From an uncultured Candidatus Neoarthromitus sp. (GTDB taxonomy: Bacteria > Bacillota > Clostridia > Clostridiales > Clostridiaceae): a stretch of 32,000 bases of DNA. The position numbers were made by a program, and so were the translations under genes. Below the pieces are notes generated by a model that was given only the letters and a program-made list of their open reading frames with translations, was not told where the DNA came from and made no database searches. The stretch spans positions 15,339 through 47,338 of the forward strand of contig CALADQ010000009.1 in NCBI GenBank assembly GCA_937890765.1, given 5' to 3'. Within the stretch, counting starts at the first letter, position 1. Every line of letters begins with the position of its first letter. This document shows positions 7,890 through 27,599 of the stretch, one piece after another.

Positions 7890-8864
7890 CTACACTATCC
7901 AAAATAAATTTTTAAGATGATGATATCCAAAATTTTTAAGAAACTCTCTCGCACTCTCAAAAAATACTGTCCCAATGAAAAAAGTAGTTTCTTCAGAATC
8001 AAAATTATAAATTTCTCGAATCATAAATTCTTCAATCATATTTTCATCTACATAAATTATATTTTCATGTTCGTTCAAAATATTTTTTACCAATTCAATT
8101 TTATCACTAGATTGTATTACAATTACATGTTTACTTTTTTCAATATACGTTTTAAACAAATATTTAAATAACAATTCAAGATGAAGAAATGCTATTTTTA
8201 TTCCCGTTCCATCGACAATTGAAGAATTGTTTCCATGAACTCTATAATAATAAAGTTCCTCTTCAATAACTCCTATTCTATGTCCCTTTGTATGAAATTC
8301 TAAAAATATAAGCCTATCTTCAACGCATCCATACCTATGTTGAAATGGATTTATTGTTTTGAATAAATAACTTTTTCCAAAAATCGCACCACCATTTGGA
8401 TATCTACCAAAATAAGCTCTATTAAATTGGTCCATATAATTTTTAATTGGTATGTTTAATGTTTCCATGAGTTTCATATATTCTCTATCACCATCGCCAA
8501 AACCTTTTAAATAACAACCAATTAAATCATAATTATTATTTTTAAGATACTCAAGTTGCTTTTCGTATCTGTCCAAACGATTTATATCATCTCCGTCATG
8601 CCTCGCAATATATTTCCCATTTGCAACAGCAACACCTAATCTCATGGCCATACATATTCCACCATTTTTTCTCGTGAGAACTTTAACTCTCTTGTCCATT
8701 TTTTCGTATTGCTTAAGTATGGACAAACTTCTATCAGTTGAACCATCATCAACTAATATAATTTCTAAATTTTCATATGTTTGATTAATAACGCTGTCCA
8801 AACTATCTACTAAATATTTTTCTACATTGTAAACAGGTACAATGACGCTTATTAAATCTTCCAT
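7890..8864 (-). CDS. family 2 glycosyltransferase (copy A), soluble type with a roughly 100-aa C-terminal extension
   Basis: GT-A signature: ISVIVPVYNVEKYL...NQTYENLEIILVDDGSTDRS...ARHDGDDI. The track start is GTG 8876. AGGTGG lies 8 nt before ATG 8864, which gives MEDLISVIV. I see no TM segment. Confidence 0.85.
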   Translation of the reverse strand: MEDLISVIVPVYNVEKYLVDSLDSVINQTYENLEIILVDDGSTDRSLSILKQYEKMDKRVKVLTRKNGGICMAMRLGVAVANGKYIARHDGDDINRLDRYEKQLEYLKNNNYDLIGCYLKGFGDGDREYMKLMETLNIPIKNYMDQFNRAYFGRYPNGGAIFGKSYLFKTINPFQHRYGCVEDRLIFLEFHTKGHRIGVIEEELYYYRVHGNNSSIVDGTGIKIAFLHLELLFKYLFKTYIEKSKHVIVIQSSDKIELVKNILNEHENIIYVDENMIEEFMIREIYNFDSEETTFFIGTVFFESAREFLKNFGYHHLKNLFWIV

Positions 8865-8889
8865 AGAATTCACCACCTAAAATTTTTAT

Positions 8890-9909
8890 TTACCAATTAC
8901 AATCGACTAGACTAAACAAATTTTTAAAAACCACAAAATCCCTTTCAAAAAGATATTTAACTAAACTATCACAAAATGAAGCTCCAACAAGAAAAAGCGT
9001 ATTATTACAATTAAAATCATAATTGAAAATTTCGTTAAAATTATTTTCATCAAAATAAAATACATTTTTAAGCTCTTTGTAAAATTTTGAAAAACAATTT
9101 TTTATAAATCCAATCTCTCTAAAATTTTTCACAATCACAACATTTTCATATTTCAAAATTTTATCTCTAAACAAAAATCTAAACATAACTTCCACATATT
9201 TTTCAACAACAACTTTTCTATTTTTATCTAATGAAGTATTATCATTGTGAACTCTGTAATAATAGAGTTTTTCTTCAAGAATTCCAATTTTACAACCATT
9301 TTGATGAAGCAAAATATATAGATAAACATCTTCAACTAATCCATAATCTTTATGAAATGGCGAAAATTTTTTAAGAACATCACTTTTCCCGAAAAAATAT
9401 CCACCTCCAATATTACTACCTTGATAGATTCGCCTATTTTGATCATCAAAATTTTTTATAGGCCTATTAACAAATTTCTCCATGCCTCTTTTTGATATCT
9501 CACTTCCATTACCAAAACTTTTCAAATAACACCCAACAACATCATAATCATTTTCAATAAGAAATCTTAATTGTTTCTCGCATCTATCAAGCGAATTAAT
9601 ATCATCTGAATCAACTCTAAATATATATTTTCCATTTGATATACTCAAAGCATTTTTAACAGCCAACGAAATTCCCAAATTATTTTGAGTCATTACGATT
9701 ATCCGCTTGTCCAATCTTTCATAATGCTTCAAAATTGAAAGAGAATTATCTGTTGAACCATCATCGATAAAAATTATTTCTAAATTTTTATAAGTCTGAT
9801 TAATAATACTATCAATACATTCATGCAAATATTTTTCCCTATTATAAACAGGGACAATAGCACTTACTAAATCTTCTATAATCATCACCACCCCAAATTT
9901 TTTCACCAA
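8890..9909 (-). CDS. family 2 glycosyltransferase (copy B)
   Basis: It has the same GT-A motifs (VPVYNREKYL, IDDGSTDNS, RVDSDDI). The start is ambiguous. TTG 9909 or GTG 9906 overlaps the TGA stop of copy C (a GTGA overlap). ATG 9885 directly follows GGGGTGGTG. The position that is ATG in copy A reads ATA here. Confidence 0.82.
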   Translation of the reverse strand: MVKKFGVVMIIEDLVSAIVPVYNREKYLHECIDSIINQTYKNLEIIFIDDGSTDNSLSILKHYERLDKRIIVMTQNNLGISLAVKNALSISNGKYIFRVDSDDINSLDRCEKQLRFLIENDYDVVGCYLKSFGNGSEISKRGMEKFVNRPIKNFDDQNRRIYQGSNIGGGYFFGKSDVLKKFSPFHKDYGLVEDVYLYILLHQNGCKIGILEEKLYYYRVHNDNTSLDKNRKVVVEKYVEVMFRFLFRDKILKYENVVIVKNFREIGFIKNCFSKFYKELKNVFYFDENNFNEIFNYDFNCNNTLFLVGASFCDSLVKYLFERDFVVFKNLFSLVDCNW

Positions 9910-10892
9910 CAGAAATCAACCAAATTAAATAAATTTTCAAAAACTTCAAAATCTCTTTCACTAACATAATCTTTCAACTTTGTTTTAAATGAATGTCCAA
10001 TAATAAAAAGCGTGTTATCAGATTTGAAATCACACTTTAAAATTTCATCAACATTGTCATCATCAAAATAAAATACATTTTTAACATTTGGATAAAACTC
10101 GGAAAAACAATTTTTTATCACTCTCATATCCTTATCATTTTTTACGATTACAACATTTTCATATTTCAAAATCTTTTCTCTAAAAAGAAATCTAAAAATA
10201 ACTTCAATATGTTTTTCAACAACAATTTTTCTATTCTTATCTAGTGAAGTATTATCATTGTGAACTCTGTAATAATAAAGTTCTTCTTGAAGAATTCCAA
10301 TTTTACAACCATTTTGATGAAGCAAAATATATAAATAAACATCATCAACTAATCCATAATCTTTATGAAATGGAGAAAACTTTTTAAGAACATCACTTTT
10401 CCCAAAAAGATAACCTCCTCCGATATTACATCCCTCATAAATTAATTTATTTTGGTCATGATAATCTTTTATAGATCTGTTAACATATACCTCCATGCCT
10501 TTTTTAGATATTTCACTTCCATTACCAAAACTTTTTAAATAACAACCAACAACATCATAATCCTTTTCAAGAAGGAATTTTAATTGTTTTTCACACCTAT
10601 CTAAGTAATTGATATCATCTGAATCAACTCTGAATATATATTTTCCATTTGATATACTCAAAGCGTTTTTAACAGCTAAACACGTTCCCAAATTATTTTG
10701 AGTCATTACAATTATTCGCTTGTCCAATCTTTCATAATGCTTCAAGATTGAAAGAGAATTATCTGTTGAACCATCATCAACAAAAATTATTTCTAAATTT
10801 TTATAAGTTTGATTAATAATGCTATCAATACATTCGAACAAATACTTTTCCCTATTGTAAACAGGAACAATAACACTTACCAAATCGCCCAT
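9903..10892 (-). CDS. family 2 glycosyltransferase (copy C)
   Basis: The protein starts MGDLVSVIVPVYNREKYL and carries VDDGSTDNS and RVDSDDI. GAGGTG SD lies 7 nt before ATG 10892. It is a near-duplicate of copy B. Confidence 0.87.
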   Translation of the reverse strand: MGDLVSVIVPVYNREKYLFECIDSIINQTYKNLEIIFVDDGSTDNSLSILKHYERLDKRIIVMTQNNLGTCLAVKNALSISNGKYIFRVDSDDINYLDRCEKQLKFLLEKDYDVVGCYLKSFGNGSEISKKGMEVYVNRSIKDYHDQNKLIYEGCNIGGGYLFGKSDVLKKFSPFHKDYGLVDDVYLYILLHQNGCKIGILQEELYYYRVHNDNTSLDKNRKIVVEKHIEVIFRFLFREKILKYENVVIVKNDKDMRVIKNCFSEFYPNVKNVFYFDDDNVDEILKCDFKSDNTLFIIGHSFKTKLKDYVSERDFEVFENLFNLVDFCW

Positions 10893-11017: not shown

Positions 11018-12886
11018 TTATTTAGTTATAACTAAAGTTCCACCTAAATCACATAAAGGAAATTTTAAAAGTTTATGGCCAATAATTTTTTCAAAATCTT
11101 TAACTGCCGATGATACACCTTTATACAATTTATGATTATAATCTCTAACAAAAATATATCCGCCTGGCGATAATCTATTGTAAAAATATTTCAATCCTTC
11201 TAAAGTTGCTTTATAAAAATTTACATCTAAACTAACAAAACAAAATCTTTCTTCAAATCCTTCTAAACTTTCAGGAAAATATCCTTGTTTAACAACAACT
11301 TTATCTTTATTTTGTAATTTATCTAATACCAAATCTACATTAGTAATTTTATAAATATCTCTAATATCATTTAAAATATTTTCATCTACAAATTTATTTA
11401 CTTTTTCAAATTCAATATCACGTTCGTCATAACTATTAAATGTGTCAAACAAATAAAGTTTTCTATCATAAAATACCTTACTTAAAAGTTTAGCAAAATC
11501 TCCTCTGAACACTCCTAATTCCGCTACTTCACCTAAAACATTGTTATTTTTAATCTCTCTCGCACAAAGTTCCAAAGTAAAAAACCTATTATAATCACCG
11601 CCATTAACATCATCTATATTAACTGGATTATTTTCATCGCTCACAAATTCATAATCACTATTAATTTTTGATGTTAAAACTACACCATTTGAATAATTAC
11701 TTCCATTAAAAATAGCATTACTTATATCTTTGAAAGCTTGTCCAATTTCATTAGCATATGATATCAGTTCTCCACTTTCCAGATAATTTTGAGCAGCTCC
11801 TCCATAATTTCTTTTTTTAGATAATATTCTTCCTATTAAACTGTACAAATTTTTTGAAGTTTCATTCATTATAGTGTGCTTTTCTGGATTATTACTTAAA
11901 TCTAATTCAATTTCTTCCAGAAATTTATCTATTTCAAAATCAGTGTTTATTAAAACTCTCTTCCCTTTTAGATATATAAGTTCTAACAAATTACATTCTT
12001 CTTTTTCTAATTCTTTTAAACATTCATCAAATTTAGTATAATCTTTAAGCTCTATATAACTTTCACATAAAACAAAAAGCGAATACATCTTCATAAAATG
12101 GTATAAATCTTCATCTAAATAAGAGTACTCCCCAGTATTATTTTTAATATAAGAGGCATAATTTATAATTGTTTGAGGAAGTTCTTTATTTTCTATTTTC
12201 AAAATTAAAAGATAATATTTCCATATAGGATTTGGATCTATTAAACTCATTCTGTTTAGTATAAATTCATTTGTATCCGATTTCCTAATAAAATTTTCAT
12301 AATCTCTTATTTTGAGAAGAGTTATTTTAGTATTAACATAGTTTTTATATTTTTTATTATAAATTCTATCTTCAAAATATTCTTCATTTTTTTCAATATC
12401 TAATATTTTAAAATTAATATTTGTACACGCTATTTCGTCTAATATAAAATATAATTCTTCTATTTCATCATAATCTTCTAAAAAAATTTCGTTTGAATTT
12501 ATATTTATTTGTACATTGTCAGAACATTTATAATTATGAATACTTGCATAAGAATTAGAACAAAATTTTTGCATATTTTTTTCAAATTGTCCATGCACAT
12601 TTAATTTTACTTCTCTCTTCCTATATCTTAAAAGATATTCTATAAAATTCTCCAAATCATCAAAAACACTATCTTCCAAAATATCTTTATAATCATTTCC
12701 AAAAAAGTATTTTTCTAAAGATTCAGAAACACTGTCGATCAATCTTAAAACTTTTAGTCTTTTCTGTATCTTCAAAATCAATTCTTTGTTAACTTTAGGC
12801 TTGCATAAAAGTTTCTCTACCATTTCATTAAAAAAATCAAAATTTCCTATTAGAAATTTTGAATAAGTATCCAAATAATCCCCCAC
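11018..12886 (-). CDS. fusion protein: N-terminal helical domain of about 400 aa (unknown) plus a C-terminal TylF/Methyltransf_24-like class I SAM-dependent methyltransferase
   Basis: GTG start at 12886 with AAGGAGG 7 nt upstream. C-terminal motifs are GEVAELGVFRGDFAKLL, LYLFDTF, VSLDVNFYKATLEGLKYFYNRLSPGGYIFVRDYN. These follow the macrocin-O-methyltransferase-type pattern E.GV.rG...LFD.F...lD.D.Y..T...L......L..GG....DDY. Confidence 0.75.
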   Translation of the reverse strand: MGDYLDTYSKFLIGNFDFFNEMVEKLLCKPKVNKELILKIQKRLKVLRLIDSVSESLEKYFFGNDYKDILEDSVFDDLENFIEYLLRYRKREVKLNVHGQFEKNMQKFCSNSYASIHNYKCSDNVQININSNEIFLEDYDEIEELYFILDEIACTNINFKILDIEKNEEYFEDRIYNKKYKNYVNTKITLLKIRDYENFIRKSDTNEFILNRMSLIDPNPIWKYYLLILKIENKELPQTIINYASYIKNNTGEYSYLDEDLYHFMKMYSLFVLCESYIELKDYTKFDECLKELEKEECNLLELIYLKGKRVLINTDFEIDKFLEEIELDLSNNPEKHTIMNETSKNLYSLIGRILSKKRNYGGAAQNYLESGELISYANEIGQAFKDISNAIFNGSNYSNGVVLTSKINSDYEFVSDENNPVNIDDVNGGDYNRFFTLELCAREIKNNNVLGEVAELGVFRGDFAKLLSKVFYDRKLYLFDTFNSYDERDIEFEKVNKFVDENILNDIRDIYKITNVDLVLDKLQNKDKVVVKQGYFPESLEGFEERFCFVSLDVNFYKATLEGLKYFYNRLSPGGYIFVRDYNHKLYKGVSSAVKDFEKIIGHKLLKFPLCDLGGTLVITK

Positions 12887-13005: not shown

Positions 13006-15180
13006 TTATTCTACTTTTAATCCTATACTGAACAAGAAGTTTCTAGTTTCCAATTCTCCTAACATTCTCTGAGAAATGGCTTGCATTGCTGCTGTTCTAT
13101 CTCCAAGTTGTGCTATTGTTTGTTCAAGTGTTTTAACCCACCATGCCAAACCTTCAGCATCTGAAGTTCTTCCTGTTACCGATCTATACATACGTTCTAC
13201 ATATTTAGCATTATCTAAGTTCTTTTCTTTATATTCATTTTCATTTACTATATTTGAAGTAAAGTAATTAACTGTTATTTCTTGTGATGAAAGTTTTGAC
13301 GTCCAATAAAGCATACCATCTGGATCTCCATCTCTTAAGAAGAATATGTGGTAAAATCCTTCAATCCAGTCCTTAGCATTTGTAACTTTCTTAGTTGTAA
13401 ATGCTTCTATTTCCATTCCTAATTCTTCACCATTTACTAGGGTAACAACTAATTCTAATCCTTTGTGTTGATTATTTGGTGTCAATCCGTATAATTTCAA
13501 CAAACTATTCTTAGAATCATAGAAAGACTTAGCTATTGAATCACCATCTATCCTAACATCTTTAACTATGCCATCTTTATCATTAAACTTAATTTCAAAC
13601 TCTGCTTTAGTAGGAGTTATATTCTTAAGTTCAAATGACTTTAAGAAATCATCCGATATATTAACATCACTTCCTGATGATTTACCACCCATAGTTTTAA
13701 TAGGAATTGGATTTACAGAAATAAGATCATAATTTGTAAACCTTCTATTTATATCCCCATCACCTGAATTATAAGTTACAATTAATTCTACAAACTTATA
13801 AGTAGTACCTGGCTTTAAGCCTTCAATTATAAAATCTTTATAAGCTGTAGCATTCTTTTGTGGATCTTTAACTAAATCATCTGTCTTACCATAAGATTGA
13901 ACTTGACCTATTTTATCGGCTTCTTTAAGAATTCTACCTGAATAAATTTTCCCTTCTGAATCTTTAATTTGAATTCTTTTTACGGTATTTTCCGGATCAT
14001 AAATAGCATCATAGAAAACTATTCCATCTTCTAATGGTCTAACGTTAGAATGCTTATAACCATGTGATTTATCATCGCTTGAAAATGGACCTATATACTC
14101 AACAATACCATTTCCTTTTGAAGAAACCTCTCCCTTTGAATTTACAGATAAATCAGTATAATAAGAAACTGTAGATTTTATAGTCATAGGGTCCAATGGA
14201 TTTGAATTATCTACATTTATAGCTTCAGTTAACATAGGATCAACATAAGGAATTATTCCTTTAGCCCCTGAAATTTCTGATTGTTGAGAAACTTTCCTAA
14301 CAACACTACTTTCAACTAAAGATGGGAATAACAATTCGCCTTGAAATTTAATATTTGTTACTTCACTTCCAGTTGGTAAACCATAAACCTTAAAGTAAAT
14401 ATTTCCCTCTTCATCAACAATTCTAGGAGCATTGAACTTGTTTGTATACTGATTTACCTTAGATACAGTACTATCCATTATTAAATCTAATACTGTGATT
14501 TTCTTTTGATCAGACTTAGAACCAGTTGAATAATCTACAATAAGATTAAAATCTTTATTAACTAATTCACCAGATTCATACAACATACCTAGAGAATTTT
14601 GAATGACTGTTGCAAGAGTCTCTTGCTCAATTAAACTTATTTGACTTCCTTTGCCTTGTTCAAGCAAAATTTTATTTTTCTTAACCTCTTCAACTGCTTT
14701 ATCTATAGTGTTTTTAAGAGCCTCCCCAACATTTCCACCAAATTTAACTTTAATGTATATATATCCTCCTGTTAGAGCATCTCTTACATTTGACTTTTTG
14801 TAGTCTTTTACATCTTCTCTAATTACAACTGTGCTTGACCTTAAAACTCCACCTTCAATTCCAACTATGCTCATAAAATTTTCAGCAGATTTTTCAACCG
14901 AAGCTGGTGCCTTAAAATCTTCCGTACCTTTTAACGGTAACATCTCATTTTCATCATATTTACCATTACCATTAAAATCAACTGCTCCTGGATTTGAACC
15001 AGCTGGAACTTCTGTATTAAGAAGACCAACGGTGAACTGTCTATCGCCTTCTAAGTATTTATCTTCAGCTGCCGGTATAGCAAAAGCGGTGAAACTTCCA
15101 AAATTAACGCATATAGTTGAAAACATAAACATAGAAACTAATGTTGCAACTATCTTTTTAGTAAACTTCTTACTTAACAT
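13006..15180 (-). CDS. secreted cell-surface protein with tandem C-terminal DUF4214-type domains (S-layer-like candidate)
   Basis: The track ORF runs to 15231, but GAGGAGGAAGAG directly precedes ATG 15180. That start gives MLSKKFTKKIVATLVSMFMFSTICVNFGSFTAFA, a signal peptide. The C-terminus carries two DUF4214-like units: WIEGFYHIFFLRDGDPDGMLYWTSKL... and YVERMYRSVTGRTSDAEGLAWWVKTL.... It is a paralog of the 969-aa protein at 23293..26202. Confidence 0.82.
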   Translation of the reverse strand: MLSKKFTKKIVATLVSMFMFSTICVNFGSFTAFAIPAAEDKYLEGDRQFTVGLLNTEVPAGSNPGAVDFNGNGKYDENEMLPLKGTEDFKAPASVEKSAENFMSIVGIEGGVLRSSTVVIREDVKDYKKSNVRDALTGGYIYIKVKFGGNVGEALKNTIDKAVEEVKKNKILLEQGKGSQISLIEQETLATVIQNSLGMLYESGELVNKDFNLIVDYSTGSKSDQKKITVLDLIMDSTVSKVNQYTNKFNAPRIVDEEGNIYFKVYGLPTGSEVTNIKFQGELLFPSLVESSVVRKVSQQSEISGAKGIIPYVDPMLTEAINVDNSNPLDPMTIKSTVSYYTDLSVNSKGEVSSKGNGIVEYIGPFSSDDKSHGYKHSNVRPLEDGIVFYDAIYDPENTVKRIQIKDSEGKIYSGRILKEADKIGQVQSYGKTDDLVKDPQKNATAYKDFIIEGLKPGTTYKFVELIVTYNSGDGDINRRFTNYDLISVNPIPIKTMGGKSSGSDVNISDDFLKSFELKNITPTKAEFEIKFNDKDGIVKDVRIDGDSIAKSFYDSKNSLLKLYGLTPNNQHKGLELVVTLVNGEELGMEIEAFTTKKVTNAKDWIEGFYHIFFLRDGDPDGMLYWTSKLSSQEITVNYFTSNIVNENEYKEKNLDNAKYVERMYRSVTGRTSDAEGLAWWVKTLEQTIAQLGDRTAAMQAISQRMLGELETRNFLFSIGLKVE

Positions 15181-15369
15181 CTCTTCCTCCTCGAAAGTAA
15201 TTAAATTTAAAATTAAACCCGCTAAACTCATTAAATTTATTTGATTGCGTTTATAAGTCTATATTCGAGATATTTAAAAAAAAGTTTACTGTATTAATTA
15301 AATTTTTATTTTTATAATTTTCTAAATTAATTTTAGGTTCATAAAATATAATATAAATTTATATTTTCA

Positions 15370-15888: not shown

Positions 15889-16878
15889 TTAAACTTCTAT
15901 ATATTTATCTTTCAATACCATTTCGACCCAATTTAAATTATTTAAATACCAATTCACAGTATGCTTTAATCCTTCAAAAATTTTAATTTTACACTCAAAA
16001 CTCAAATTACTATCTAAATTTTCAATATTGTTGTAGAAGTTATTCTCATCTAACTTTTCGTTATTTTTTAAAACTATTAAAGATTCATCTTTATTTAAAA
16101 AAGATAAAACTTTTTTTGTTAATTCCAACTCATCTATTTCTTCACAAGAAAAAATATTATAAATATTTCCTGATTTTCCAGTACGTATTATTTTATCTAT
16201 TGCAATAACATGATCATAAACGTGAACTAATTTCATAAACTTTCTATTTTTATTAAAAAAAATTTTTTCATTTCCAATAGCTTTAACAATAATTGATGGA
16301 ATGAATTTTTCTGGATATTGATATGGACCATAATTATTTGCACTTCTAGAAATAGTTACTTCCAAATCAGAATTTTTACAATAACACAATGCCAACATAT
16401 CACTTGAAGCCTTAGTAAAAAAATAAATGGATGATAGATTTAATTTATCATTATTACAGAAAAATTTTTCATCGTACGAATGTAAATTTTCATGTATTTC
16501 ATCTGTTGAAACTTGATGAAATTTTTTAACATTATACTTTAAACACATATCCATTAAATTTTTTGTACCTATTATATTGGTTTTCAAAAACAAATTACTA
16601 TCTTTAATAGACTTATGAGCATAAGTTTCAGCTGCAAAATTTAGAACTAAATCAAAATGCTCCTTTGCAAAAACATCACTCAAAAAATCATTGTCTAAAA
16701 TATTTCCTCTATAAAATTTGAAATTTGTATTTTCTTTAACTGATTCTAAATTTTCAAGATTACCGGCATAAGTTAAAGCATCTAAACAAACAATCTGAAT
16801 ATCTCTATACTTATTTATCATGTAGCTTATAAAATTACTTCCAATAAATCCAGCTCCGCCAGCTACGCAAACCTTCAT
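15889..16878 (-). CDS. NAD-dependent sugar-nucleotide 4,6-dehydratase/epimerase (SDR family), RmlB-like
   Basis: Rossmann motif GGAGFIGSNF. RmlB-like blocks are LTYAGNLENL, VSTDEI, Y-FFT-K (YxxxK) and SRSANNYGPYQYPEKFIPS. AGGAGG SD favours ATG 16878 over the track's TTG 16881. Confidence 0.8.
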   Translation of the reverse strand: MKVCVAGGAGFIGSNFISYMINKYRDIQIVCLDALTYAGNLENLESVKENTNFKFYRGNILDNDFLSDVFAKEHFDLVLNFAAETYAHKSIKDSNLFLKTNIIGTKNLMDMCLKYNVKKFHQVSTDEIHENLHSYDEKFFCNNDKLNLSSIYFFTKASSDMLALCYCKNSDLEVTISRSANNYGPYQYPEKFIPSIIVKAIGNEKIFFNKNRKFMKLVHVYDHVIAIDKIIRTGKSGNIYNIFSCEEIDELELTKKVLSFLNKDESLIVLKNNEKLDENNFYNNIENLDSNLSFECKIKIFEGLKHTVNWYLNNLNWVEMVLKDKYIEV

Positions 16879-16994
16879 CAAATCCTCCTATAAAATTAAA
16901 TACAAAACATTTTTCACTTACCTAAGTCTACTATAAATTTTAAAATTCTTCCACTTTATAAAATAACAATAAATAATTAAATTTATAAAAATTC

Positions 16995-17023
16995 TTTATA
17001 GTTAAACAAATTTCATATATAAT
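16995..17023 (+). promoter_or_regulatory. candidate sigma-A promoter for the riboswitch-ade transcript
   Basis: The -10 is TATAAT at 17018-17023. A weak -35 (TTTATA, 16995-17000) sits at 17-nt spacing. The -10 context atatataatgttt is identical to that upstream of codB. Confidence 0.35.
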
Positions 17024-17036
17024 GTTTACTTATAAC

Positions 17037-17105
17037 CTTCGTATAAGCTTAATAATATGGTTTAAGCGTTTCTACAATATCACCGAGAATGATATTACTA
17101 TGAAG
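17037..17105 (+). promoter_or_regulatory. purine riboswitch aptamer, guanine/hypoxanthine type
   Basis: The sequence is CUUCGUA-UAAG-CUUAAUAAUAUGGUUUAAGC-GUUUCUAC-AAUAUCACCGAGAAUGAUAUU-ACU-AUGAAG. It aligns block by block with the xpt and add aptamers as I recall them: P1, a P2 with an AUAUGG loop, J2-3 GUUUCUAC, and a P3 with a CCGAGAA loop. The specificity position (17098) is C, as in guanine sensors. Confidence 0.85.
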
Positions 17106-17158
17106 ATTAAAATCCACGAAGGTTATAATATTTATTTACAAAAAGGTGGATTTGAAAA

Positions 17159-18930: not shown

Positions 18931-18946
18931 GTTTTAAAGAAAACTA

Positions 18947-18984
18947 GTCCTTTAAATTTAGTCCAGAGAGGCTAACAAGGTCGA
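18947..18984 (+). promoter_or_regulatory. PyrR-binding anti-antiterminator stem-loop
   Basis: GUCCUUUAAAUUUAGUCCAGAGAGGCUAACAAGGUCGA contains the PyrR binding-loop consensus ARUCCAGAGAGGYU (18960-18973). It also has the flanking CCUUUAA...AAGG lower stem described for Bacillus pyr attenuators. Confidence 0.82.
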
Positions 18985-19027
18985 CCGTTATAAAAAAGTT
19001 TTTACACAATCTTTGCATATTAAAATC

Positions 19028-19058
19028 GACCTTCTTTAAATTTAAGAAGGTCTTTTTT
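19028..19058 (+). terminator. attenuator terminator of the codBA leader
   Basis: The stem is GACCUUCUU (19028-19036) with AAGAAGGUC (19044-19052), followed by UUUUUU. Its 5' arm region, UCGACCUU (19026-19033), can instead pair with AAGGUCGA (18977-18984) as an antiterminator. Confidence 0.82.
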
Positions 19059-19112
19059 GTTATAAATTTTAAGACTAGTTTTCATAATCAATAATTTTTA
19101 GGAGATTGATTT

Positions 19113-20360
19113 ATGAAAAAAATAATTCATTTAAACAACAACGATTACGAACTTTCTAACGTTTTTAGTAAAGACAAAAAAGGATTTTTCTCAATGCTAG
19201 TTATTATGCTTGGATTTACATTTTTCTCAGCAAGTATGATGACAGGTGGGACTCTTGGAACTGGTTTGGATTTCAAAAATTTTATCATTGCAGTTGCTGC
19301 AGGAAATTTAATTCTCGCAATATACACTGGCCTTCTTGCATACGTTGGTTCTTCTACAGGACTATCGATGCATTTGTTAACGAGATATTCATTTGGAGAA
19401 AAAGGTTCTTATTTAGCATCTTTTATAACAAGTATAACTCAGATTGGTTGGTTTGGAGTTGGAATTTCAATGTTTGCAATACCAATCGCAAATAGATTTA
19501 ATATAAATGTTTATGTTTTAGTTGGAATAACTGGGATTCTCATGACATCAACCGCATATTTCGGAATAAAATCCTTGACTATATTAAGTGCCATAGCAGT
19601 ACCTGCAATTGCAATATTAGGTAGCACTTCAATTTTTATAGCTACAAATTCTGTTGGTGGAATAAATGACTTGATGAATATAACTCCTGTTGATAAAATT
19701 TCTTTAATTAGTGCAATTTCATTATGCATAGGGTCATTCATAAGTGGTGGAACAGTTACACCAGACTTCGCGAGATTTTCAAAAAAGAAAATGTCTGCGG
19801 TATTAACAACAGTTATCGCATTTTTCATTGGGAATTCATTAATGTTTCTATTTGGAGCAATAGGAGCTATGGTTAAAGGAACTGCCGAAGTAGCAGATGT
19901 ATTATTTTCACAAGGGCTCGTAATACCTGCAATAATAGTTTTAGGTTTAAACATTTGGACTACAAACGACAATGCACTTTACACTTCTGGGCTTGGACTT
20001 TCAAACATAACAAAAATATCTAAAAAGAAACTTGTGTTAATAAGTGGTTTAATTGGAACTGTAGGAGCGATATGGCTCAACAATAATTTTATTGAATTTC
20101 TAACATTTTTAAACTCTATGCTTCCACCAATTGGAGGAATAATAATCGCAGATTTTTTCTTCGTAAACAAACGCAAATATGAAAAAATAGAAAATGTAAA
20201 ATTCAAATCCATAAATCCAATTGCCATAATTTCATTTTTAATTGGATTTTCCACAGCTCACTTAATAAAATTTGGGATAACAGCAATAAATGTTTTGATT
20301 ATTACAATTATTTCTTATGTTATTGGAATGAAATTATTTTATAAGAAAGGAACTCATTAA
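19113..20360 (+). CDS. codB: cytosine permease (NCS1 family)
   Basis: 415 aa. The blocks [36 protein letters not shown] and [19 protein letters not shown] closely match E. coli CodB as I recall it. Confidence 0.92.
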
Positions 20361-21625
20361 TGTTAATTAAAAATATTAAACTTTTAGACAGTGAAAAAAT
20401 TGTAAGTATAAGAATAGAAAATAAAATTATAACCGAAATTAATTCTGATTTATCTCCTTATGAAAATGAAGAAGTGATTGAAGGAAATAATCTTTTAGCA
20501 ATTCCTCCATTCATAGAACCGCACATTCATCTCGATACGACTTTAACAGCTGGAGAACCAAAATGGAACAAAAGCGGAACTCTTTTCGAAGGGATAAAGC
20601 GATGGAGTGAAAGAAAAGAATTTTTAACAAAGCACGATGTTAAATCACGAGCTATGAAAGTTGTAAAATGGCAAATTGCAAATGGCATTCAATTCATACG
20701 AACTCATGTGGATGTGACGGATAAAAATTTAGTTGCATTAGAAGCTATGCTCGAACTTAAAGATGATTTAAAAAATTTTGTTACTCTTCAAATAGTTGCG
20801 TTCCCTCAAGAAGGAATTTTATCTTTTAAAAATGGTAAAGAATTATTGGAGCAATCAATAAAATTAGGTGCTGATGTTGTTGGTGCAATTCCACATTTTG
20901 AATTTACAAGAGAGTACGGAGTTGAATCTATAAATTTTATTTTCGATTTAGCGACGAAGTACAATAAACTTATTGATGTTCATTGCGATGAAATTGATGA
21001 TGAACAATCTAGATTTTTAGAAGTAGTTGCAACTAGAGCTTTAGAAAGTGGATTAAAAAATAAAGTTACTGCTAGTCATACAACAGCGATGGGCTCTTAC
21101 AACAACGCTTACACTTTTAAATTATTTAGGCTTTTGAAATTATCAAAAATAAATTTTGTGTGCAACCCTTTAATAAACACTCATCTTCAAGGAAGGTTTG
21201 ACACATATCCAAAACGAAGAGGCTTAACTCGTGTTAAAGAATTAAATGAAAATAATATAAATGTTTGTTTTGGACACGATGACATATTAGACCCATGGTA
21301 TCCAATGGGAACAGGAAACATGATGGAAGTTTTGCATTTTGGACTTCACGTGTGTCAAATGATGGGATATGATGACATAAATGAATCAATTAAATTTATA
21401 ACTAAAAATAGCGCATTAACATTAAACATAGAAGATGATTATAAAATTGAAATTTCAAAACCTGGAAATCTAATTATACTTAACAGTGAAAATATTTTTG
21501 ATGCTGTGAGAAAAAAGTGTGACGTTATCTATTCAATTAGGGAAGGAAAAATAATTTCAAAAAACAATCCTAAACAATCTTACGTGAACTTAAATGGACT
21601 TGAGGAAATAAATTTTATGAAGTAA
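20360..21625 (+). CDS. codA: cytosine deaminase
   Basis: The block [38 protein letters not shown]...[17 protein letters not shown] closely matches E. coli CodA. The start overlaps the codB stop (TAATG), which suggests translational coupling. Confidence 0.95.
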
Positions 21626-21664
21626 ATGGATTTTAATTTTATCCATTTGCTTTTTTGTTTTTTG
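21624..21664 (+). terminator. intrinsic terminator after codA
   Basis: The stem is aaatggat (21624-21631) with atccattt (21641-21648), followed by gcttttttgttttttg. Confidence 0.75.
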
Positions 21665-21719: not shown

Positions 21720-21748
21720 TTGTAAACATTAAACATTAATGCTATAAT
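21720..21748 (+). promoter_or_regulatory. candidate extended -10 promoter of the GT2-TPR gene
   Basis: TTGTAA (21720-21725), a 17-nt spacer, then TGcTATAAT (the -10 at 21743-21748). Confidence 0.55.
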
Positions 21749-21841
21749 TTTGTAGAATTAACAATAAACATATTAGTGATTTTAACAAAAATCTAAAATT
21801 AAAATTTATAATGTACGCAACTTGCTGAAAGGTGGTATAAG

Positions 21842-23245
21842 ATGTTAACCCTACGTTCGATAACAGAAAGTATAGATATTGATTATTTTAAATTTAATTT
21901 AAATTTTCATAAATACATTGAAGACAAATTGAAACAAGACAAGTTCAAAACAACAAAAGAATTTAAAAAGAATTTAAAAAGAAGAATACAACTTTTAAGT
22001 TGCATAAATGGTACATGCCCTGATTTGTTGAAATTCTTTATAAATGATGATTACACAAATTATCAAGAAGATTTTACTAACGAAGACCTTGTTGATTTAG
22101 TGAACAAATTTTCAGACGATGAACCAATAAAATTAAGTGTAAATCTAATAGTTTATAATGAAGAACGTTGCATAGAACGCTGTCTATCCTCCCTTCTAAC
22201 CTTCGCTGACGAAATTTTAGTTTTAGACACTGGGTCCACAGACAATACAACTAAAATAATCGAAGAAAAATTCCCACAAGTAAAACTTTTTCGTGATAAA
22301 TGGAGAAAAGATTTTGCATACTCGCGAAATATTTTAATAGATAAATCTACAAACGATTGGATTCTTTCAATTGACGCCGATGAAACGCCAATAGATGAAT
22401 TTCATCTCATAAAAGATGTTATTTCTCTATTCAACAATTTTAAAGCTGATAAAGATCACCCTCTTGTATTTTCACCTACTATAGATTCATTAGGTCAAAA
22501 AATAAATACAACAAAAAGAATTTTCAACAAAACACATGAAATGAAATTTGATGGGAAGATTCACGAAGAAATTGTATCTAAAAATGAAAAGGAAATCAAT
22601 TATATAATGCTATCACTAACTTTAAGTCATGACGGATATCATCCCGATGTATTTAAAGAGAAAAATAAGGCAGAGAGAAATACAGAAATCCTAGAAAAAA
22701 TGATAAAATTAGAGCCAAACAAAATAAGATGGTATTATTTTTTAGGACGCGAAAAAAATATTTTAGGACACGATATTGATGAATGTATAAAAATTTTAAA
22801 ATCTGGTTTGAAATTAAAACATACTCAAAATTCTATAGAAAATTTTTACTACAATATTTTAACTTTACTTGCAAAAATATCTGTATCTCATAAAAAATAT
22901 GATTTATTAAAAGAAGTTATCGAATTAATGGAATATGAAATTCCAAATTCCCTAGATGCATTTTATTTTAAATTAATATTGGAAAATGATTCAGTAATGA
23001 GTGATAAATTTCTACAAATAAATAATATGGTAAAATCTATTGGTGATATTTCAAATAAAGTAAATACAATTGATGAAACATATTCTCATATACTTCACAC
23101 TTTAGGTTTAATATATTTAAGTTTCAGAGATTATACAAGAGCATTTTACTATTTTAATCAAATTCAATCTCAAAAAAATATAGATGCCATCAAAGAGATT
23201 CTTTTACCACTTAAAAATGAAATAGATGAATTTATGAAAAAATAA
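21842..23245 (+). CDS. GT2 glycosyltransferase fused to a C-terminal TPR-like helical domain (SunS/GmaR-like architecture)
   Basis: The GT-A core is LSVNLIVYNEERCIERCL...ILVLDTGSTDNTTKIIEEKFPQVKLFRDKWRKDFAYSRN...SIDADE. It is followed by HDGYHPDV...ERNTEILEKMIKLEPNKIRWYYFLGRE and helical repeats. AGGTGG SD lies 6 nt before the ATG. Confidence 0.8.
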   Translation: MLTLRSITESIDIDYFKFNLNFHKYIEDKLKQDKFKTTKEFKKNLKRRIQLLSCINGTCPDLLKFFINDDYTNYQEDFTNEDLVDLVNKFSDDEPIKLSVNLIVYNEERCIERCLSSLLTFADEILVLDTGSTDNTTKIIEEKFPQVKLFRDKWRKDFAYSRNILIDKSTNDWILSIDADETPIDEFHLIKDVISLFNNFKADKDHPLVFSPTIDSLGQKINTTKRIFNKTHEMKFDGKIHEEIVSKNEKEINYIMLSLTLSHDGYHPDVFKEKNKAERNTEILEKMIKLEPNKIRWYYFLGREKNILGHDIDECIKILKSGLKLKHTQNSIENFYYNILTLLAKISVSHKKYDLLKEVIELMEYEIPNSLDAFYFKLILENDSVMSDKFLQINNMVKSIGDISNKVNTIDETYSHILHTLGLIYLSFRDYTRAFYYFNQIQSQKNIDAIKEILLPLKNEIDEFMKK

Positions 23246-23252
23246 AAAAATA

Positions 23253-23290
23253 AAAGATGAAGTTTGAAAGAACTTCATCTTTATTTTTAT
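23253..23290. terminator. bidirectional terminator between the convergent GT2-TPR and surface protein genes
   Basis: A perfect 12-bp stem, aaagatgaagtt (23253-23264) with aacttcatcttt (23271-23282). An A-run lies upstream and atttttat downstream. Confidence 0.8.
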
Positions 23291-23292
23291 AA

Positions 23293-26202
23293 TTATTCAA
23301 ATTTAATACCTAATTTTTTAGCCATGTCTTTAACTTCTGGCGTATCTAACATTCTTAAAACAACAGCTGATCTAGCCTGACTTTGAGTTTCCCCTGCTTT
23401 TATTCCTTTTTCAATTTCAGAAACCCAAAAAGCAACTCCTTCACTCTCTCCAGCTCTATCAACTATAGCATACATAGCCTCAACAAACTGAGTATTAGTT
23501 AAATTTTTCTCCAACATTTCTGGAGTAAATGAAACTTGTCCTAAAAATCCTTTTAAAGTTTCTTGTCCACTAACTAATCTTTGTGTCCAATACAACAAAC
23601 CTTCTTGTTCTGGCTCCCTGTTGAAAAATGCTCTATACACTCTAGCCACATATCCCGCAACTCCACCTTGAACTTGCGCATTATTTCCTTCAGAAGTTCT
23701 GAATGTTGGAACATCCAAAGTAGTACTCTTAGTTCCATACTTAAGAACTAACTTCATATCTTTATACTCAGTTCCAACTCTAAGTCCTGATAGCTCAATT
23801 ATATTTTTATCAACATTGTACTTAGCAACAACTCCACTAACTCCTGAACCTGATACTTCAACTACTATTCCTTCTTTATCAGGATTTTTAATATCAGCAG
23901 TTACATTAGCAGTTGTTGTTGTTACTCCAGAAACTTGTACTCCTGAAGTTCCAACTTGAACCTTAGTATCACCAGCTCTCCCAGTAGCATATCTAGTTAT
24001 ACCCTGTTGTGTTTTAATTCCACCTGCATTTATAGAACCAAAAGCACCTATTGAATCTGTTCTTATAGTATTAACCCTATATCCATCCTCCGATGTAGTA
24101 AAATCAAACCTAAAATCTCTAGTCCTATCAGCCTGAATTCCAGTAATAGTTATTTCAACCATTTCTGAAGCCGATTCAACATTTGAAGCGTTAAAGTTCA
24201 ATTTAGCCTCATTACCAACTAGATAATCGTAATCTATATTACCTGATTTATCTACACCATTAACTACTCTATAAGTTTTTTCCATTTTAACATTAGCATC
24301 ATCTATTTTTTCATAAGTACCATTATTATTTATATAAGCAGTAACTCCATTTAAAATCGAATCCGCATCTTTCACTCTTCCAACAAATCTCACTCCACCT
24401 GGAATTTGCTCATACTCTAACTTGGAATCAATCCACGCTTCAGCTCTATTTTCTTTATTAGTAGTTGTAAACCTATTTTCATTTGTTCTAGTATTTGGGA
24501 ACAACACATTAGAATAAGGAGCACTTGCATTTCTTCCTAAAGAAACCGGATTTCCATACCTCTCCCTTCCATTATCATTATAAACAGTTTCAAGGGACAA
24601 GAAATCATAATTTCTATTCTGTTCTAATCCAGTTATTTCGATAGCAAACCAACTAGATTTACTGTTTTTACCATCTTTAGACTTAACATTCTTAACTTCG
24701 TAAGTTTCCCCACCTCTTAATCCTCTAACTTCAATTCTCTCAAGGTTAGTTGTGTCATCAACTTTAACAATGTAAGTCAATCTATCAAGACCAACATTTA
24801 CTTGATATAAATTACTTTTATTAAGCAGTGTATTATATCCACCAATCTCTGAAGATCTATTCTCAGACGTTGCAACAACTAAATATTTTCCTGTAACCCC
24901 AGGTGTTCCTGTAGCCCTACTATCATCAAATCTAACTCTTTGAGTTCTCTCTCCATCACCTGATTTATAAGTTATATCCATGTATTCAAACTCATAAGTT
25001 GTCCTATTATTAAGACCATTTATCTTAATATCTTTGTACCTATTCCTATAATCTACATCTGAAGCAGAAAAATTTGACTTTGGCTCTCCAGGATATTTAC
25101 CAACTGAGAAGTTACCTACTTCAGCATTAAATACATCTCCTCTTCTGTCAGTAACAGTAACACCTGTTATAACTGAATCTGTATCCTTAACAACATCAAC
25201 CAAAGTAACTGATGAACCTGAAACATTAACAAACGTATGCTCATTTTGCTCTATTATATTATCACCATCATCAACAAATTGATTAGCTTGTTTTCCATCT
25301 ACGGATCTAATATAAGAGTATAAAGAATCAGTTAAAGTCCAAGTAGCAGTAGGTATAACAGCACTTCCTGTATTATAGTTTAAATCTGTCTGTAGTGAGT
25401 AAGTTGTAAATTCCTTTTTAATACTATCATAGCTTGTACCTAAATACAAATCGGTCCTAGAATCTAATTCTATATTAGTTACATTTATTCCAGTTGGAAG
25501 TCCTCTTAGAGTTAAGTAAACCAATCCATTCTCGTCAACCAAAGAATTTAAATTCTCAACTGAAGAAGCCTTTCTAGGAGATTCGAATCTAATATCTTTC
25601 GCTGAAACATTAGTAGTCCTTGTTTTTCCATCTTGCTCATAAGTCACTAACAACTCAAGCCCTTTATTCTTGTCCAATCCTAAAAATGCATCATTCAATT
25701 TTTTACCAAGTATATCTTGTCTAGCTGTAGAGATTGAATTTCCACCATTATGCTGGTTAGAATTAATCAGATTAACATTGTCTCTGTACTCACTAACAGC
25801 ATTACTTATTTCACTTCTTAGGTAGGATTCCAAATTTCCTGTAATCCTTAATCCTAATCTTATAAAACCACCTTGTCTATCGTCAGCTTCATAAGCTGTT
25901 TTATTTTGTCCAACAATAGTCTTTTTACCTAAAACACCAGTTTCCACTTTTTCAATTGATAGAACAGTTTCTTTAGTTTCAGATGCTGTTGAAGATAACT
26001 TATCATTAGAATTTATATCGTAAGCATCAACAACCTCTAAACCATTCAAAGACCAGTTATTTTCGAAGAACCCTTGATCTTTAGATATATCTACATTAGT
26101 AGTTACGCCCGCAGCATTCGCATGAGTAGCTGGAACAACCGTTACCGCCATAGCAATCAGAGCGACGCTTGCAACCAAATTTCTCAATTTTTTAGATTTC
26201 AT
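23293..26202 (-). CDS. large secreted cell-surface protein with tandem C-terminal DUF4214-type domains (S-layer-like candidate)
   Basis: AGGAGG SD. The signal peptide is MKSKKLRNLVASVALIAMAVTVVPATHANA/AG. The mature region is Thr/Ser/Gly/Val-rich and beta-type. The C-terminus has YVARVYRAFFNREPEQEGLLYWTQRLVSGQ... and FVEAMYAIVDRAGESEGVAFWVSEIEKG... (DUF4214 pattern). I see no LPXTG, SLH or CWB2 motifs. Confidence 0.85.
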   Translation of the reverse strand: MKSKKLRNLVASVALIAMAVTVVPATHANAAGVTTNVDISKDQGFFENNWSLNGLEVVDAYDINSNDKLSSTASETKETVLSIEKVETGVLGKKTIVGQNKTAYEADDRQGGFIRLGLRITGNLESYLRSEISNAVSEYRDNVNLINSNQHNGGNSISTARQDILGKKLNDAFLGLDKNKGLELLVTYEQDGKTRTTNVSAKDIRFESPRKASSVENLNSLVDENGLVYLTLRGLPTGINVTNIELDSRTDLYLGTSYDSIKKEFTTYSLQTDLNYNTGSAVIPTATWTLTDSLYSYIRSVDGKQANQFVDDGDNIIEQNEHTFVNVSGSSVTLVDVVKDTDSVITGVTVTDRRGDVFNAEVGNFSVGKYPGEPKSNFSASDVDYRNRYKDIKINGLNNRTTYEFEYMDITYKSGDGERTQRVRFDDSRATGTPGVTGKYLVVATSENRSSEIGGYNTLLNKSNLYQVNVGLDRLTYIVKVDDTTNLERIEVRGLRGGETYEVKNVKSKDGKNSKSSWFAIEITGLEQNRNYDFLSLETVYNDNGRERYGNPVSLGRNASAPYSNVLFPNTRTNENRFTTTNKENRAEAWIDSKLEYEQIPGGVRFVGRVKDADSILNGVTAYINNNGTYEKIDDANVKMEKTYRVVNGVDKSGNIDYDYLVGNEAKLNFNASNVESASEMVEITITGIQADRTRDFRFDFTTSEDGYRVNTIRTDSIGAFGSINAGGIKTQQGITRYATGRAGDTKVQVGTSGVQVSGVTTTTANVTADIKNPDKEGIVVEVSGSGVSGVVAKYNVDKNIIELSGLRVGTEYKDMKLVLKYGTKSTTLDVPTFRTSEGNNAQVQGGVAGYVARVYRAFFNREPEQEGLLYWTQRLVSGQETLKGFLGQVSFTPEMLEKNLTNTQFVEAMYAIVDRAGESEGVAFWVSEIEKGIKAGETQSQARSAVVLRMLDTPEVKDMAKKLGIKFE

Positions 26203-26463
26203 ATTTGTCCTCCTAAATCTTTAAAACAAAGTTAAAAACTACTTCACCATAATAATTATTACTAAAATTTAATTATTGTGTATTGTGATTTTCTCTTGGC
26301 ATAATAATAACATTTGTAATCTTTTTTTAACATATTTATATAATATGATTTTTCTAATGTTTTACTATTATTTTGAATTATATCTCCTATTCTCTCTATT
26401 TTCCTTACAATTTTATTTTTTAAATTACACTTTAACACGAAGTATAACACCTATAATTTAATA

Positions 26464-26489
26464 TTTAGAATTTAAATTTAAATTCTAAA
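26464..26489. repeat. perfect 26-bp palindrome
   Basis: tttagaatttaaatttaaattctaaa equals its own reverse complement. It lies about 260 bp upstream of the 969-aa surface protein start codon. Confidence 0.9.
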
Positions 26490-26885
26490 CTAAAGGAGCA
26501 TCTTTTCTATAACAGACGCTCCTCCTTTATAACAAACTAAGGTTTCAAAATAGAAATATTTATTTATATAGAATAATTACAAAATATTAACAAAAGTTAT
26601 AAATTAAAGCCATAAACAATAATACTAACTAAAAATTTTACTTATACTGCTTAAAACCAAGAAATAAATATAGATTAAAACAAGTTTTATTATATTCCAT
26701 CTTAATATTAAGAGGTTAAACATTAATATCTCTCAATATTAACGCAACTCATTATACATAATTTTAGATAAAAATTCAATAATAATCATAAATTATTATT
26801 TTATTTTTTTTGTTTTAAATTGATTTATTTACAATTATTATTTATTTTATAAATCTAGATTAATTTCGACTTGGAGGATAAATAA

Positions 26886-27599
26886 ATGATAAACAAACTT
26901 AAATTACGCCATTTTATTATGGTTTATCCCTCTTTATGGATCGTTTATTGCATTTTCGAATTGATATCAGGAAACATCTCAGATTTGTACAGCATGATAA
27001 TGAATTTAATACCTGCTTTGTTATTATGCATAATATCTTATTTGTTCTATATCTATTATGAAAAATCCATATTTCTAAAAACCAAAGGATTAATATTTTC
27101 CATATCTTCTTTGTTTTTAACGGACCAAATTTCTAAAATAATAGTCTCATCAATATTTAAATCAAAAAACATAACAACCCTCAAAGTTATACCCAATTAT
27201 TTTTCAATAACACCTTACATTAATGATAAAGGTTCTTTTGTCGCATCAAGATTCAATATAAATGCTCCATTTATTATTTTTACGATTTTCAATTTTTTAA
27301 TTTTGTTATTGATATTTTGGATATATAGGTTTAAACTTCATAAAAAACAAATTAGTTCAATAGAACAAATATCTTTTATATTTTTATTTTCTGGTGGTCT
27401 CTGTTCGCTTATAGATAAAATTTTTTGGGGTGGAAGTTTGGATTTCTTACACATAAATAATTTGTTTATTGCAGATGTAAAAGATATTTTCATAACTTTA
27501 GGACTTGCAAGTTTTATTCTATCAAGTATAATTTCAGACGATCAAATAAATTTAAAAGAATTTTTAAATTTTACATTTAAATTAAAAATTTCCAAATAA
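26886..27599 (+). CDS. signal peptidase II (LspA)-family membrane aspartyl peptidase, divergent and N-terminally extended
   Basis: GGAGGA SD 7 nt upstream. It has LspA-like blocks in the canonical order: LTDQISK (DQxTK), YINDKGSFV (NxGxAF-like), SGGLCSLIDK (GGAxGNxxDR-like, Asp kept), SLDFLH (VVDF) and LFIADVKD (FNxAD, Asp kept). At 237 aa it is longer than the roughly 150-170 aa typical for the family. Confidence 0.6.
   Translation: MINKLKLRHFIMVYPSLWIVYCIFELISGNISDLYSMIMNLIPALLLCIISYLFYIYYEKSIFLKTKGLIFSISSLFLTDQISKIIVSSIFKSKNITTLKVIPNYFSITPYINDKGSFVASRFNINAPFIIFTIFNFLILLLIFWIYRFKLHKKQISSIEQISFIFLFSGGLCSLIDKIFWGGSLDFLHINNLFIADVKDIFITLGLASFILSSIISDDQINLKEFLNFTFKLKISK

Follow-up and report, generated by a model that had tools for sequence, protein, structure and literature searches.

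The window analysed here is a stretch of 32,000 nucleotides from an uncultured Candidatus Neoarthromitus sp. (GenBank assembly GCA_937890765.1, contig CALADQ010000009.1, positions 15,339 to 47,338 of the forward strand). Its subject is the gene for a 467-residue glycosyltransferase (P0001), which lies tail to tail with the gene for a large secreted protein. The source genome (G000) has a size of 1.56 Mb in 27 contigs, a G+C content of 28%, and a completeness of 99.7%. The close orthologues of the enzyme (82–97% identity) come from small Clostridiaceae genomes, one record being that of Candidatus Dwaynia gallinarum. The DUF4214 domain is regarded as a likely surface-anchoring domain of segmented filamentous bacteria (SFB) (PMC3371716, PMC12780176). 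A genome-wide Pfam scan of the source genome found 52 matches to it in about 29 open reading frames (ORFs), encoding proteins from ~220 aa to >2000 aa, so that a single putative wall-anchoring module is very strongly expanded. This abundance and the presence of several flagellin genes fit the published descriptions of SFB, and the genome was treated as probably belonging to the SFB group. The enzyme gene and its immediate surroundings comprise the following features:

21626–21663, + strand: candidate terminator separating codBA from the glycosyltransferase gene (hairpin and T-run straight after the codA stop codon)
21720–21748, + strand: predicted sigma-A-type promoter of the glycosyltransferase gene (TTGTAA, 17-nt spacer, extended -10; TGCTATAAT)
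21828–21835, + strand: Shine-Dalgarno sequence AAAGGTGG, 6 nt ahead of the ATG, read from the sequence
21842–23245, + strand: glycosyltransferase ORF with ATG start, 467 aa
21842–22126, + strand: N-terminal helical extension, aa 1–95 (helices at 4–89 in the AlphaFold2 (AF2) model, predicted local distance difference test (pLDDT) mostly 85–95)
22127–22711, + strand: GT-A (GT2) catalytic domain, aa 96–290 (NEERCI, DTGSTD, DADE, HEE, and HDGY motifs)
22712–23245, + strand: C-terminal all-helical domain of the SunS/ThuS type, aa 291–467 and stop codon (full-length alignment to ThuS and SunS)
23253–23282, both strands: bidirectional intrinsic terminator of the glycosyltransferase and surface protein genes (12–13-bp hairpin, called on both strands)
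23293–26202, − strand: secreted 969-aa protein (signal peptide; C-terminal DUF4214 domain, Pfam, E 7.4e-13)

Family membership and domain structure of the enzyme

The first-pass annotation, made from the letters alone, had listed several blocks resembling SunS. All of them are seen in the translation (LIVYNEERCIERCL, VLDTGSTDNT, KWRKDFAYSRN, IDADE, HDGYHP, and RNTEILEKMIKLEPNKIRWYYFLGRE), with the correction that the last block reads WYYFLGRE and not W.FFLGRE, and the resemblance proved to be homology along the entire enzyme. The NCBIfam profile TIGR04195 (SunS-family peptide S-glycosyltransferase) matched with an E value of 4.7e-61, aligning aa 73–461 to profile positions 34–417 of 421; the score of 206.9 bits lies below the curated equivalog cut-off of 350 bits, so the enzyme is a divergent subfamily member and not an equivalog. 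In a sequence search of the PDB, the enzyme matched ThuS (7msk, E 2.8e-49) and SunS (7msn, E 4.8e-44) over the whole length, and the third-best solved sequence was the GT domain of GmaR (22ao, E 6e-25), aligned to aa 98–293 only. Generic GT2 enzymes among the solved structures gave E values of 1e-8 or weaker. The possibility, raised at the outset, that polysaccharide or spore-coat GT2 enzymes would be the best homologues did not materialize, since TarS, SpsA, and chondroitin synthase were about 20 orders of magnitude weaker. Foldseek comparison of an AF2 model, which was built from a 36-sequence family alignment and had a mean pLDDT of 89, returned ThuS (E 1.1e-30, TMt 0.81–0.83 over 417–419 columns) and SunS (E 2e-28, TMt 0.79–0.80), the next fold being TarS at 8e-09.

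All 31 family-invariant columns of the 36-sequence alignment are kept in the enzyme (NEERCI, DxGS, DxDE, HE, HDGY, two Lys residues, and one Trp residue), including every invariant catalytic residue, which argues against lost catalysis. A segment scan revealed no hydrophobic segments in the enzyme. On these sequence and structure comparisons, it is almost certainly a member of the SunS/ThuS family, and it is predicted by homology to be a soluble cytoplasmic GT-A enzyme dependent on a metal and a UDP-sugar.

The architecture proposed earlier, an N-terminal GT-A domain followed by a helical TPR-like domain, held in part. Both domains exist; the GT-A domain (PF00535, GT2, at aa 99–186, E 5.3e-19) is, however, not N-terminal, being preceded by ~95 aa of helices, and no TPR family of Pfam matched the enzyme, so that the Pfam-detectable TPRs that follow GT-A in SgtA-type enzymes were not found. 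The N-terminal extension is also present in the nearest relatives from glycocin clusters (P0018–P0023) in the family alignment. The enzyme resembles the peptide S-/O-glycosyltransferases ThuS (thurandacin) and SunS (sublancin) in its N-terminal helices, GT-A domain, and C-terminal helical domain, and differs from them in having ~30–45 additional N-terminal residues.

The enzyme gene is predicted to be monocistronic and to have its own conserved promoter. A promoter scanner found 10 of 12 matches, with TG ahead of the -10 element. The -35 and -10 elements are near-invariant in four SFB lineages, including Dwaynia with its different upstream gene, and the sole change is one TGn base in locus L008. 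On the upstream side, an inverted repeat ATGGAT...ATCCAT at 21626–21646 followed by a T-rich run, both read from the sequence, likely separates codBA from the glycosyltransferase gene; the terminator scanner made no call at this site because the stem has too few G-C pairs. The bidirectional terminator that the gene had been said to share with the surface protein gene is real: besides the calls on both strands, its hairpin is kept with compensatory changes in the aligned loci L008, L019, and L018.

Glycocin clusters of the relatives and their missing counterparts in SFB

Outside the SFB clade, identity to the enzyme falls straight to 34–38%. The nearest non-SFB relatives (P0018–P0024, aligned over 83–98% of the length) belong to glycocin-like clusters of Paenibacillus alvei, Bacillus cereus, and metagenomic relatives. 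Neighbourhoods were examined for six non-SFB relatives spread over the tree (P0018, P0021, P0023, P0024, P0034, and P0044). A Peptidase_C39-ABC transporter gene adjoins the enzyme gene in all six. A gene of 64–72 aa lies directly upstream in five, and each of these five peptides has a double-Gly leader; the sixth relative has thioredoxin, DsbB, and DsbA genes, as in the sublancin cluster. These neighbourhoods are canonical glycocin-type clusters. The precursor genes were located as follows:

L011:7632-7850, L014:7731-7925, L016:7704-7919, L041:4797-4991, and L042:3954-4148: precursor peptide genes beside the enzyme genes of the relatives

The tails of the five precursors carry (T/C/A)TW within the last 3–8 residues (TTWNYRR, TTWSYRK, ATWKRIFG, TTWNH, and CTWH). 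Cys is absent from two of the five, and none has the nested-disulfide pattern of classical glycocins. They may form a separate class of glycocin-like peptides with O-glycosylation at the C-terminal tail.

All known glycocins have their leaders cleaved off by a C39-peptidase ABC transporter (PCAT) (PMC12457901). No match to Peptidase_C39 (PF03412) was found anywhere in the 99.7%-complete source genome. When the five cognate precursors, along with three other small ORFs from the neighbourhoods, were used as tblastn queries against this genome, no hit was better than E 0.05. Scans of it for the TTW.YR-type tail, double-Gly leaders, C-terminal (T/C)TW, and nested C-x6-C picked up a ferredoxin and a SCIFF-type peptide, and otherwise only junk frames. 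Outside the window, at G000:C26:117944 (− strand), a 47-aa ORF whose C-terminal half contains six Cys residues resembles a SCIFF-type peptide modified by a radical S-adenosylmethionine enzyme. A hidden small ORF in the flanking intergenic regions was also considered and rejected: the conserved patches there are open in several frames and on both strands and are hence DNA elements, not a peptide gene. According to the Pfam annotation of the neighbours, no thiol-disulfide oxidoreductase or immunity gene adjoins the enzyme gene, a genome-wide search for these not having been made. The earlier statement that no glycocin-like ORF or flagellin gene lies nearby is true locally, and the absence of the precursor, as well as that of the C39 exporter, extends to the whole genome.

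The enzyme, the only one of its type in the source genome, is an orphan in that the system known for its family is missing, and very probably does not form part of a glycocin system. In contrast to ThuS and SunS, it has no precursor peptide, C39-ABC exporter, or gene cluster, and its apparently monocistronic gene is located in a region of surface genes. A quick maximum-likelihood tree, for which GT2-TPR proteins served as the root, placed the SFB sequences in a fully supported clade, long-stemmed (1.07) and with a very short crown, within the SunS-like radiation; support for this nesting is moderate, the values of the Shimodaira-Hasegawa-like approximate likelihood-ratio test (SH-aLRT) at the enclosing nodes being 87–94, and not ≥95.

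The same searches bear on the explanation that the enzyme still modifies an unrecognized small ribosomal peptide, which would be free of a double-Gly leader and would either leave the cell through Sec or a different transporter or be retained in it. Peptide systems account for all characterized relatives and for each of the six neighbourhoods sampled, and small ORFs are easily missed at 28% G+C. However, there is no C39 domain, the tblastn, (T/C)TW-tail, and C-x6-C searches were empty save for the ferredoxin and the SCIFF-type peptide, and the conserved patches beside the gene are non-coding; this explanation is rather improbable.

Conservation of the enzyme and its pairing with a surface protein gene

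The enzyme gene is under strong purifying selection. Its dN/dS (the ratio of non-synonymous to synonymous substitution rates) is 0.05–0.09 across five SFB lineages, these values being rough because dS is near saturation. The amino-acid identity across SFB lineages is 82–87% for the enzyme and 71–78% for the products of codA, codB, and ade; for the adjacent surface protein, it is 55–58%, with a dN/dS of ~0.33. Within SFB, the mean pairwise identity is 89% in the GT-A domain and 72% in the N-terminal extension, the least conserved part. The first half of the helical domain (aa 291–390) shows 96% identity within SFB, whereas it reaches 28% among the non-SFB relatives, of which it is the most variable part. 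This difference between a near-invariant domain in the SFB clade and a variable one in the glycocin enzymes may be read as a helical domain that follows divergent peptides in bacteriocin systems and faces one fixed partner in SFB.

In each of the seven SFB lineages examined, the enzyme gene forms a tail-to-tail pair with the 969-aa protein gene's orthologue, despite three upstream layouts. The first is ade-codB-codA (the window, L008, and L019); in the second, rmlD and rmlB lie beyond ade, and the oppositely oriented rmlC and rmlA come after it (L018, L046, and L047); the third has ade alone (L045). The rmlA gene is divergent from the enzyme gene in three lineages. The interval from ade to the glycosyltransferase gene thus differs among SFB lineages (window 19113–21625 versus L018:1599-3039, L046:5407-6842, L047:5549-6890, and L045).

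The 969-aa protein has a single hydrophobic segment, located at the N-terminus. Described previously as Ser/Thr-rich, it is moderately enriched in Thr (9.1% versus a genome background of 4.2%), but its Ser content is at background (7.6% versus 7.4%). It contains no Cys, so that any linkage to it would be an O-linkage. This protein was tried as the mouse-SFB Th17 (T helper 17) antigen and rejected: the 3340-A6 epitope QFSGAVPNKT (PMC12960244), allowing for up to three mismatches, is absent from the source genome and all fetched loci. Upstream of its gene lies a non-coding stretch of 683 bp (26203–26885), in which blocks of ~60 nt are kept in L008 and L019; they are open in several frames on both strands and are therefore probably regulatory DNA or a 5' leader element. 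Beyond it, a 237-aa LspA-like protein is encoded at window positions 26886–27599 (TIGR00077, E 7.6e-09, below the cut-off), with an additional N-terminal region of ~70 aa. Its gene adjoins a CPA2 antiporter gene in six of seven SFB loci, the seventh contig (L018) ending before this position.

The region on the other side of the enzyme gene contains further genes for surface and sugar-related proteins:

7890–8876, 8890–9909, and 9903–10892, − strand: three GT2 genes (Pfam), the products having no transmembrane segments (soluble)
11018–12886, − strand: TylF-type methyltransferase fusion (Pfam)
13006–15231, − strand: second candidate acceptor, a 741-aa paralogue of the 969-aa protein carrying a signal peptide and DUF4214 (E 8.2e-13)
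15889–16881, − strand: 330-aa NAD-dependent sugar epimerase/dehydratase, rmlB-like (Pfam Epimerase, GDP_Man_Dehyd)

BLASTP of the 741-aa protein against the 969-aa protein gave E values of 9e-24 and 3e-19 over most of its length. The paralogue gene, the three GT2 genes, and the methyltransferase fusion gene all lie within 15 kb of the enzyme gene. For each of the three GT2 proteins, the best solved homologue is CgT/dGT1 (E ~1e-27 to 1e-28), an enzyme that elongates the O-glycan on the streptococcal adhesin Fap1 (PMC5063993); the match is only modestly better than generic GT2 matches and carries little weight. These GT2 proteins and the TylF-type fusion are possible glycan-extending enzymes, their tie to the SunS-type gene being drawn from proximity only.

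The rmlB-like gene is the sole remnant here of the rml set that flanks the enzyme gene in other SFB lineages; rmlA, rmlC, and rmlD are present in L018, L046, and L047. No rmlC was found anywhere in the source genome, so dTDP-rhamnose would not be formed by the usual route, and the enzyme is as conserved in this genome as in the rml-bearing lineages. The adenine deaminase gene is preceded by a purine riboswitch (77.5 bits, window 17019–17120), and codB-codA by a PyrR binding site (65.7 bits, window 18945–19060).

Candidate acceptors and alternative explanations

Taken as a whole, the observations are best explained by a former glycocin enzyme that now modifies an endogenous SFB protein, for which a rough probability of 45% was estimated. 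The ancestral enzymes would have worked in bacteriocin clusters, transferring hexose or N-acetylhexosamine onto Cys, Ser, or Thr of a small precursor, which was then exported by a C39-ABC transporter. In the SFB lineage, the peptide and the transporter would have been lost, and the enzyme kept as a single-gene unit amid surface protein and sugar metabolism genes. Since SFB have neither a cognate peptide nor an exporter for it, the enzyme probably glycosylates one of their own proteins. It would O-glycosylate Ser or Thr residues of such a protein in the cytoplasm, ahead of export; foremost among the candidate acceptors is the adjacent 969-aa DUF4214 protein, together with its 741-aa paralogue. 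An O-linkage is favoured by the lack of Cys in the candidate acceptor and in two of the five precursors of the relatives. The neighbouring DUF4214 protein or proteins are the best single candidate, proposed tentatively: the pair survives the rearranged upstream flank, and the region is devoted to surface proteins and sugars.

Several points weigh against this reading, in addition to the near-saturated dS, the TIGR04195 score below the cut-off, and the moderate support for the nesting given above. To our knowledge, the characterized SunS-family enzymes all act on peptides of ~40–70 aa, and none on a 100-kDa secreted protein. The enzyme and surface protein genes are convergent, form separate transcription units, and are not co-transcribed. 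With ~29 DUF4214 ORFs in the source genome, a DUF4214 neighbour is not rare; by a rough estimate, the chance of such a gene being the immediate neighbour of a given gene is ~4%. Adjacency kept within one clade may reflect simple inheritance. The combination of a fast-evolving surface protein and a near-invariant putative binding domain suggests that a highly conserved partner would fit better. Only one SecA was found in the source genome, hence no accessory Sec system such as those that export heavily glycosylated adhesins. A lipid-linked polysaccharide route is encoded elsewhere in this genome (Bac_transf, Wzx-like, and Wzy_C), so that proteins are not the only conceivable acceptors of the neighbouring GT2 enzymes. 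The argument that an exporter-less genome proves cytoplasmic protein glycosylation was rejected because of these Bac_transf, Wzx-like, and Wzy_C genes.

A more extended scheme can be drawn from the preferred reading, in which the bacteriocin-maturation enzyme was domesticated as a priming enzyme for the cytoplasmic O-glycosylation of the SFB DUF4214 surface proteins, the three GT2 enzymes would extend the glycan, and some lineages would add rhamnose and methyl groups; in its entirety, this scheme is unlikely. The DUF4214 proteins are candidate building blocks of the SFB surface layer (S-layer) or hair-like layer.

The proposed logic, cytoplasmic glycosylation before Sec export, is known from other systems. 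Haemophilus HMW1C is a soluble cytoplasmic enzyme that glycosylates the Sec-exported adhesin HMW1, and GtfAB plus dGT1 act on streptococcal serine-rich repeat proteins (SRRP). The likeness is limited to this logic: the initiating enzymes there belong to GT41 and GT4, families unrelated to the SFB enzyme, and SRRP export proceeds via an accessory SecA2/Y2 system, unlike in the source genome with its one SecA. In Clostridioides difficile, SgtA, a GT-A plus TPR enzyme, adds O-linked N-acetylglucosamine (O-GlcNAc) onto Thr of the exosporium protein BclA3, which is encoded adjacent to it (PMC7157674). This pair is a functional precedent for the proposed modification of the neighbouring surface protein. 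The SFB enzyme shares with SgtA the order of GT-A and helical repeats and the position beside a surface protein gene. SgtA, compared here by description, is 358 aa long, modifies a collagen-like GPT repeat, and has TPRs that Pfam detects, whereas the SFB enzyme has a helical domain of the SunS type.

A different endogenous acceptor would be flagellin, O-glycosylated in the cytoplasm before flagellar export, as by the O-GlcNAc transferase GmaR of Listeria, a cytoplasmic enzyme with a similar GT-A domain whose substrate is exported later. At least four full flagellins are encoded in the source genome, in which P0001 is the only enzyme of its type and a search for Maf-type enzymes found none. The GmaR GT domain is also the next-best solved match after SunS and ThuS (22ao, E 6e-25), and the highly conserved flagellin termini would suit the near-invariant helical domain. 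However, this match is confined to the GT-A domain, and the genome-wide search showed that none of the flagellin genes is near the enzyme gene, that no GT2 gene is near any of them, and that the two main ones lie among housekeeping genes. The ~600-aa GT2-TPR relatives from four of the five Clostridiaceae genomes examined likewise do not adjoin flagellin genes, and a literature search found no report of SFB flagellin glycosylation. This alternative is accordingly improbable. Arrays of three to five paralogous ~600-aa genes with GT2 and helical repeats, not located by flagellin genes where this was checked, were observed in several other Clostridiaceae genomes (G017:C6:1059454-1068797 and G021:C47:207809-219174).

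SFB form spores, and the enzyme might act in the mother cell on a coat or exosporium protein, as SgtA does on BclA3 (PMC7157674); enzymes with GT-A plus helical repeats, of 350–386 aa and ~600 aa, are frequent among its distant relatives in Clostridia. It is, however, far nearer to ThuS and SunS (E 1e-49) than to the GT2-TPR group (~1e-23 to 1e-32), the 969-aa neighbour contains no collagen-like GxT repeats, and the promoter looks sigma-A-like and not sporulation-specific, the latter being weak evidence. A role at the spore surface is thus a poor prospect. Equally poor is that of a non-protein acceptor (a cell-wall polymer or small molecule) or of a mainly non-catalytic regulatory or scaffolding role like that of GmaR as an anti-repressor: the gene does lie in a region of sugar metabolism and the cell envelope, and a helical domain conserved at 96% points to a fixed protein partner that is not necessarily a substrate, but all solved and characterized close relatives glycosylate peptides, and every family-invariant catalytic residue is kept.

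SFB attach to the ileal epithelium and drive Th17 and immunoglobulin A responses, and their surface composition is largely uncharacterized. Their S-layer and hair-like layer were imaged only recently (PMC12780176). An intact and strongly conserved glycosyltransferase, predicted to be protein- or peptide-directed and encoded beside two DUF4214 proteins, a group suspected of forming the surface-anchored set of SFB, leads to the hypothesis that SFB surface proteins are glycoproteins, which, if true, would affect how SFB antigens are expressed, detected, and interpreted. A literature search found no description of a SunS/ThuS-family enzyme kept outside a bacteriocin context in SFB. We know of no other SunS-family enzyme working outside a bacteriocin cluster; if the acceptor is an SFB protein as proposed, this would be the first such case known in the family and would also provide a candidate tool enzyme for O-glycosylation. 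Should the acceptor be flagellin or an unseen peptide, the finding would be more ordinary, yet still a clear case of an enzyme for peptides that are synthesized ribosomally and modified post-translationally (RiPP) without its cluster. If the more extended scheme given above is true, an immune-training commensal would present to its host a glycoprotein coat made by a repurposed glycocin enzyme.

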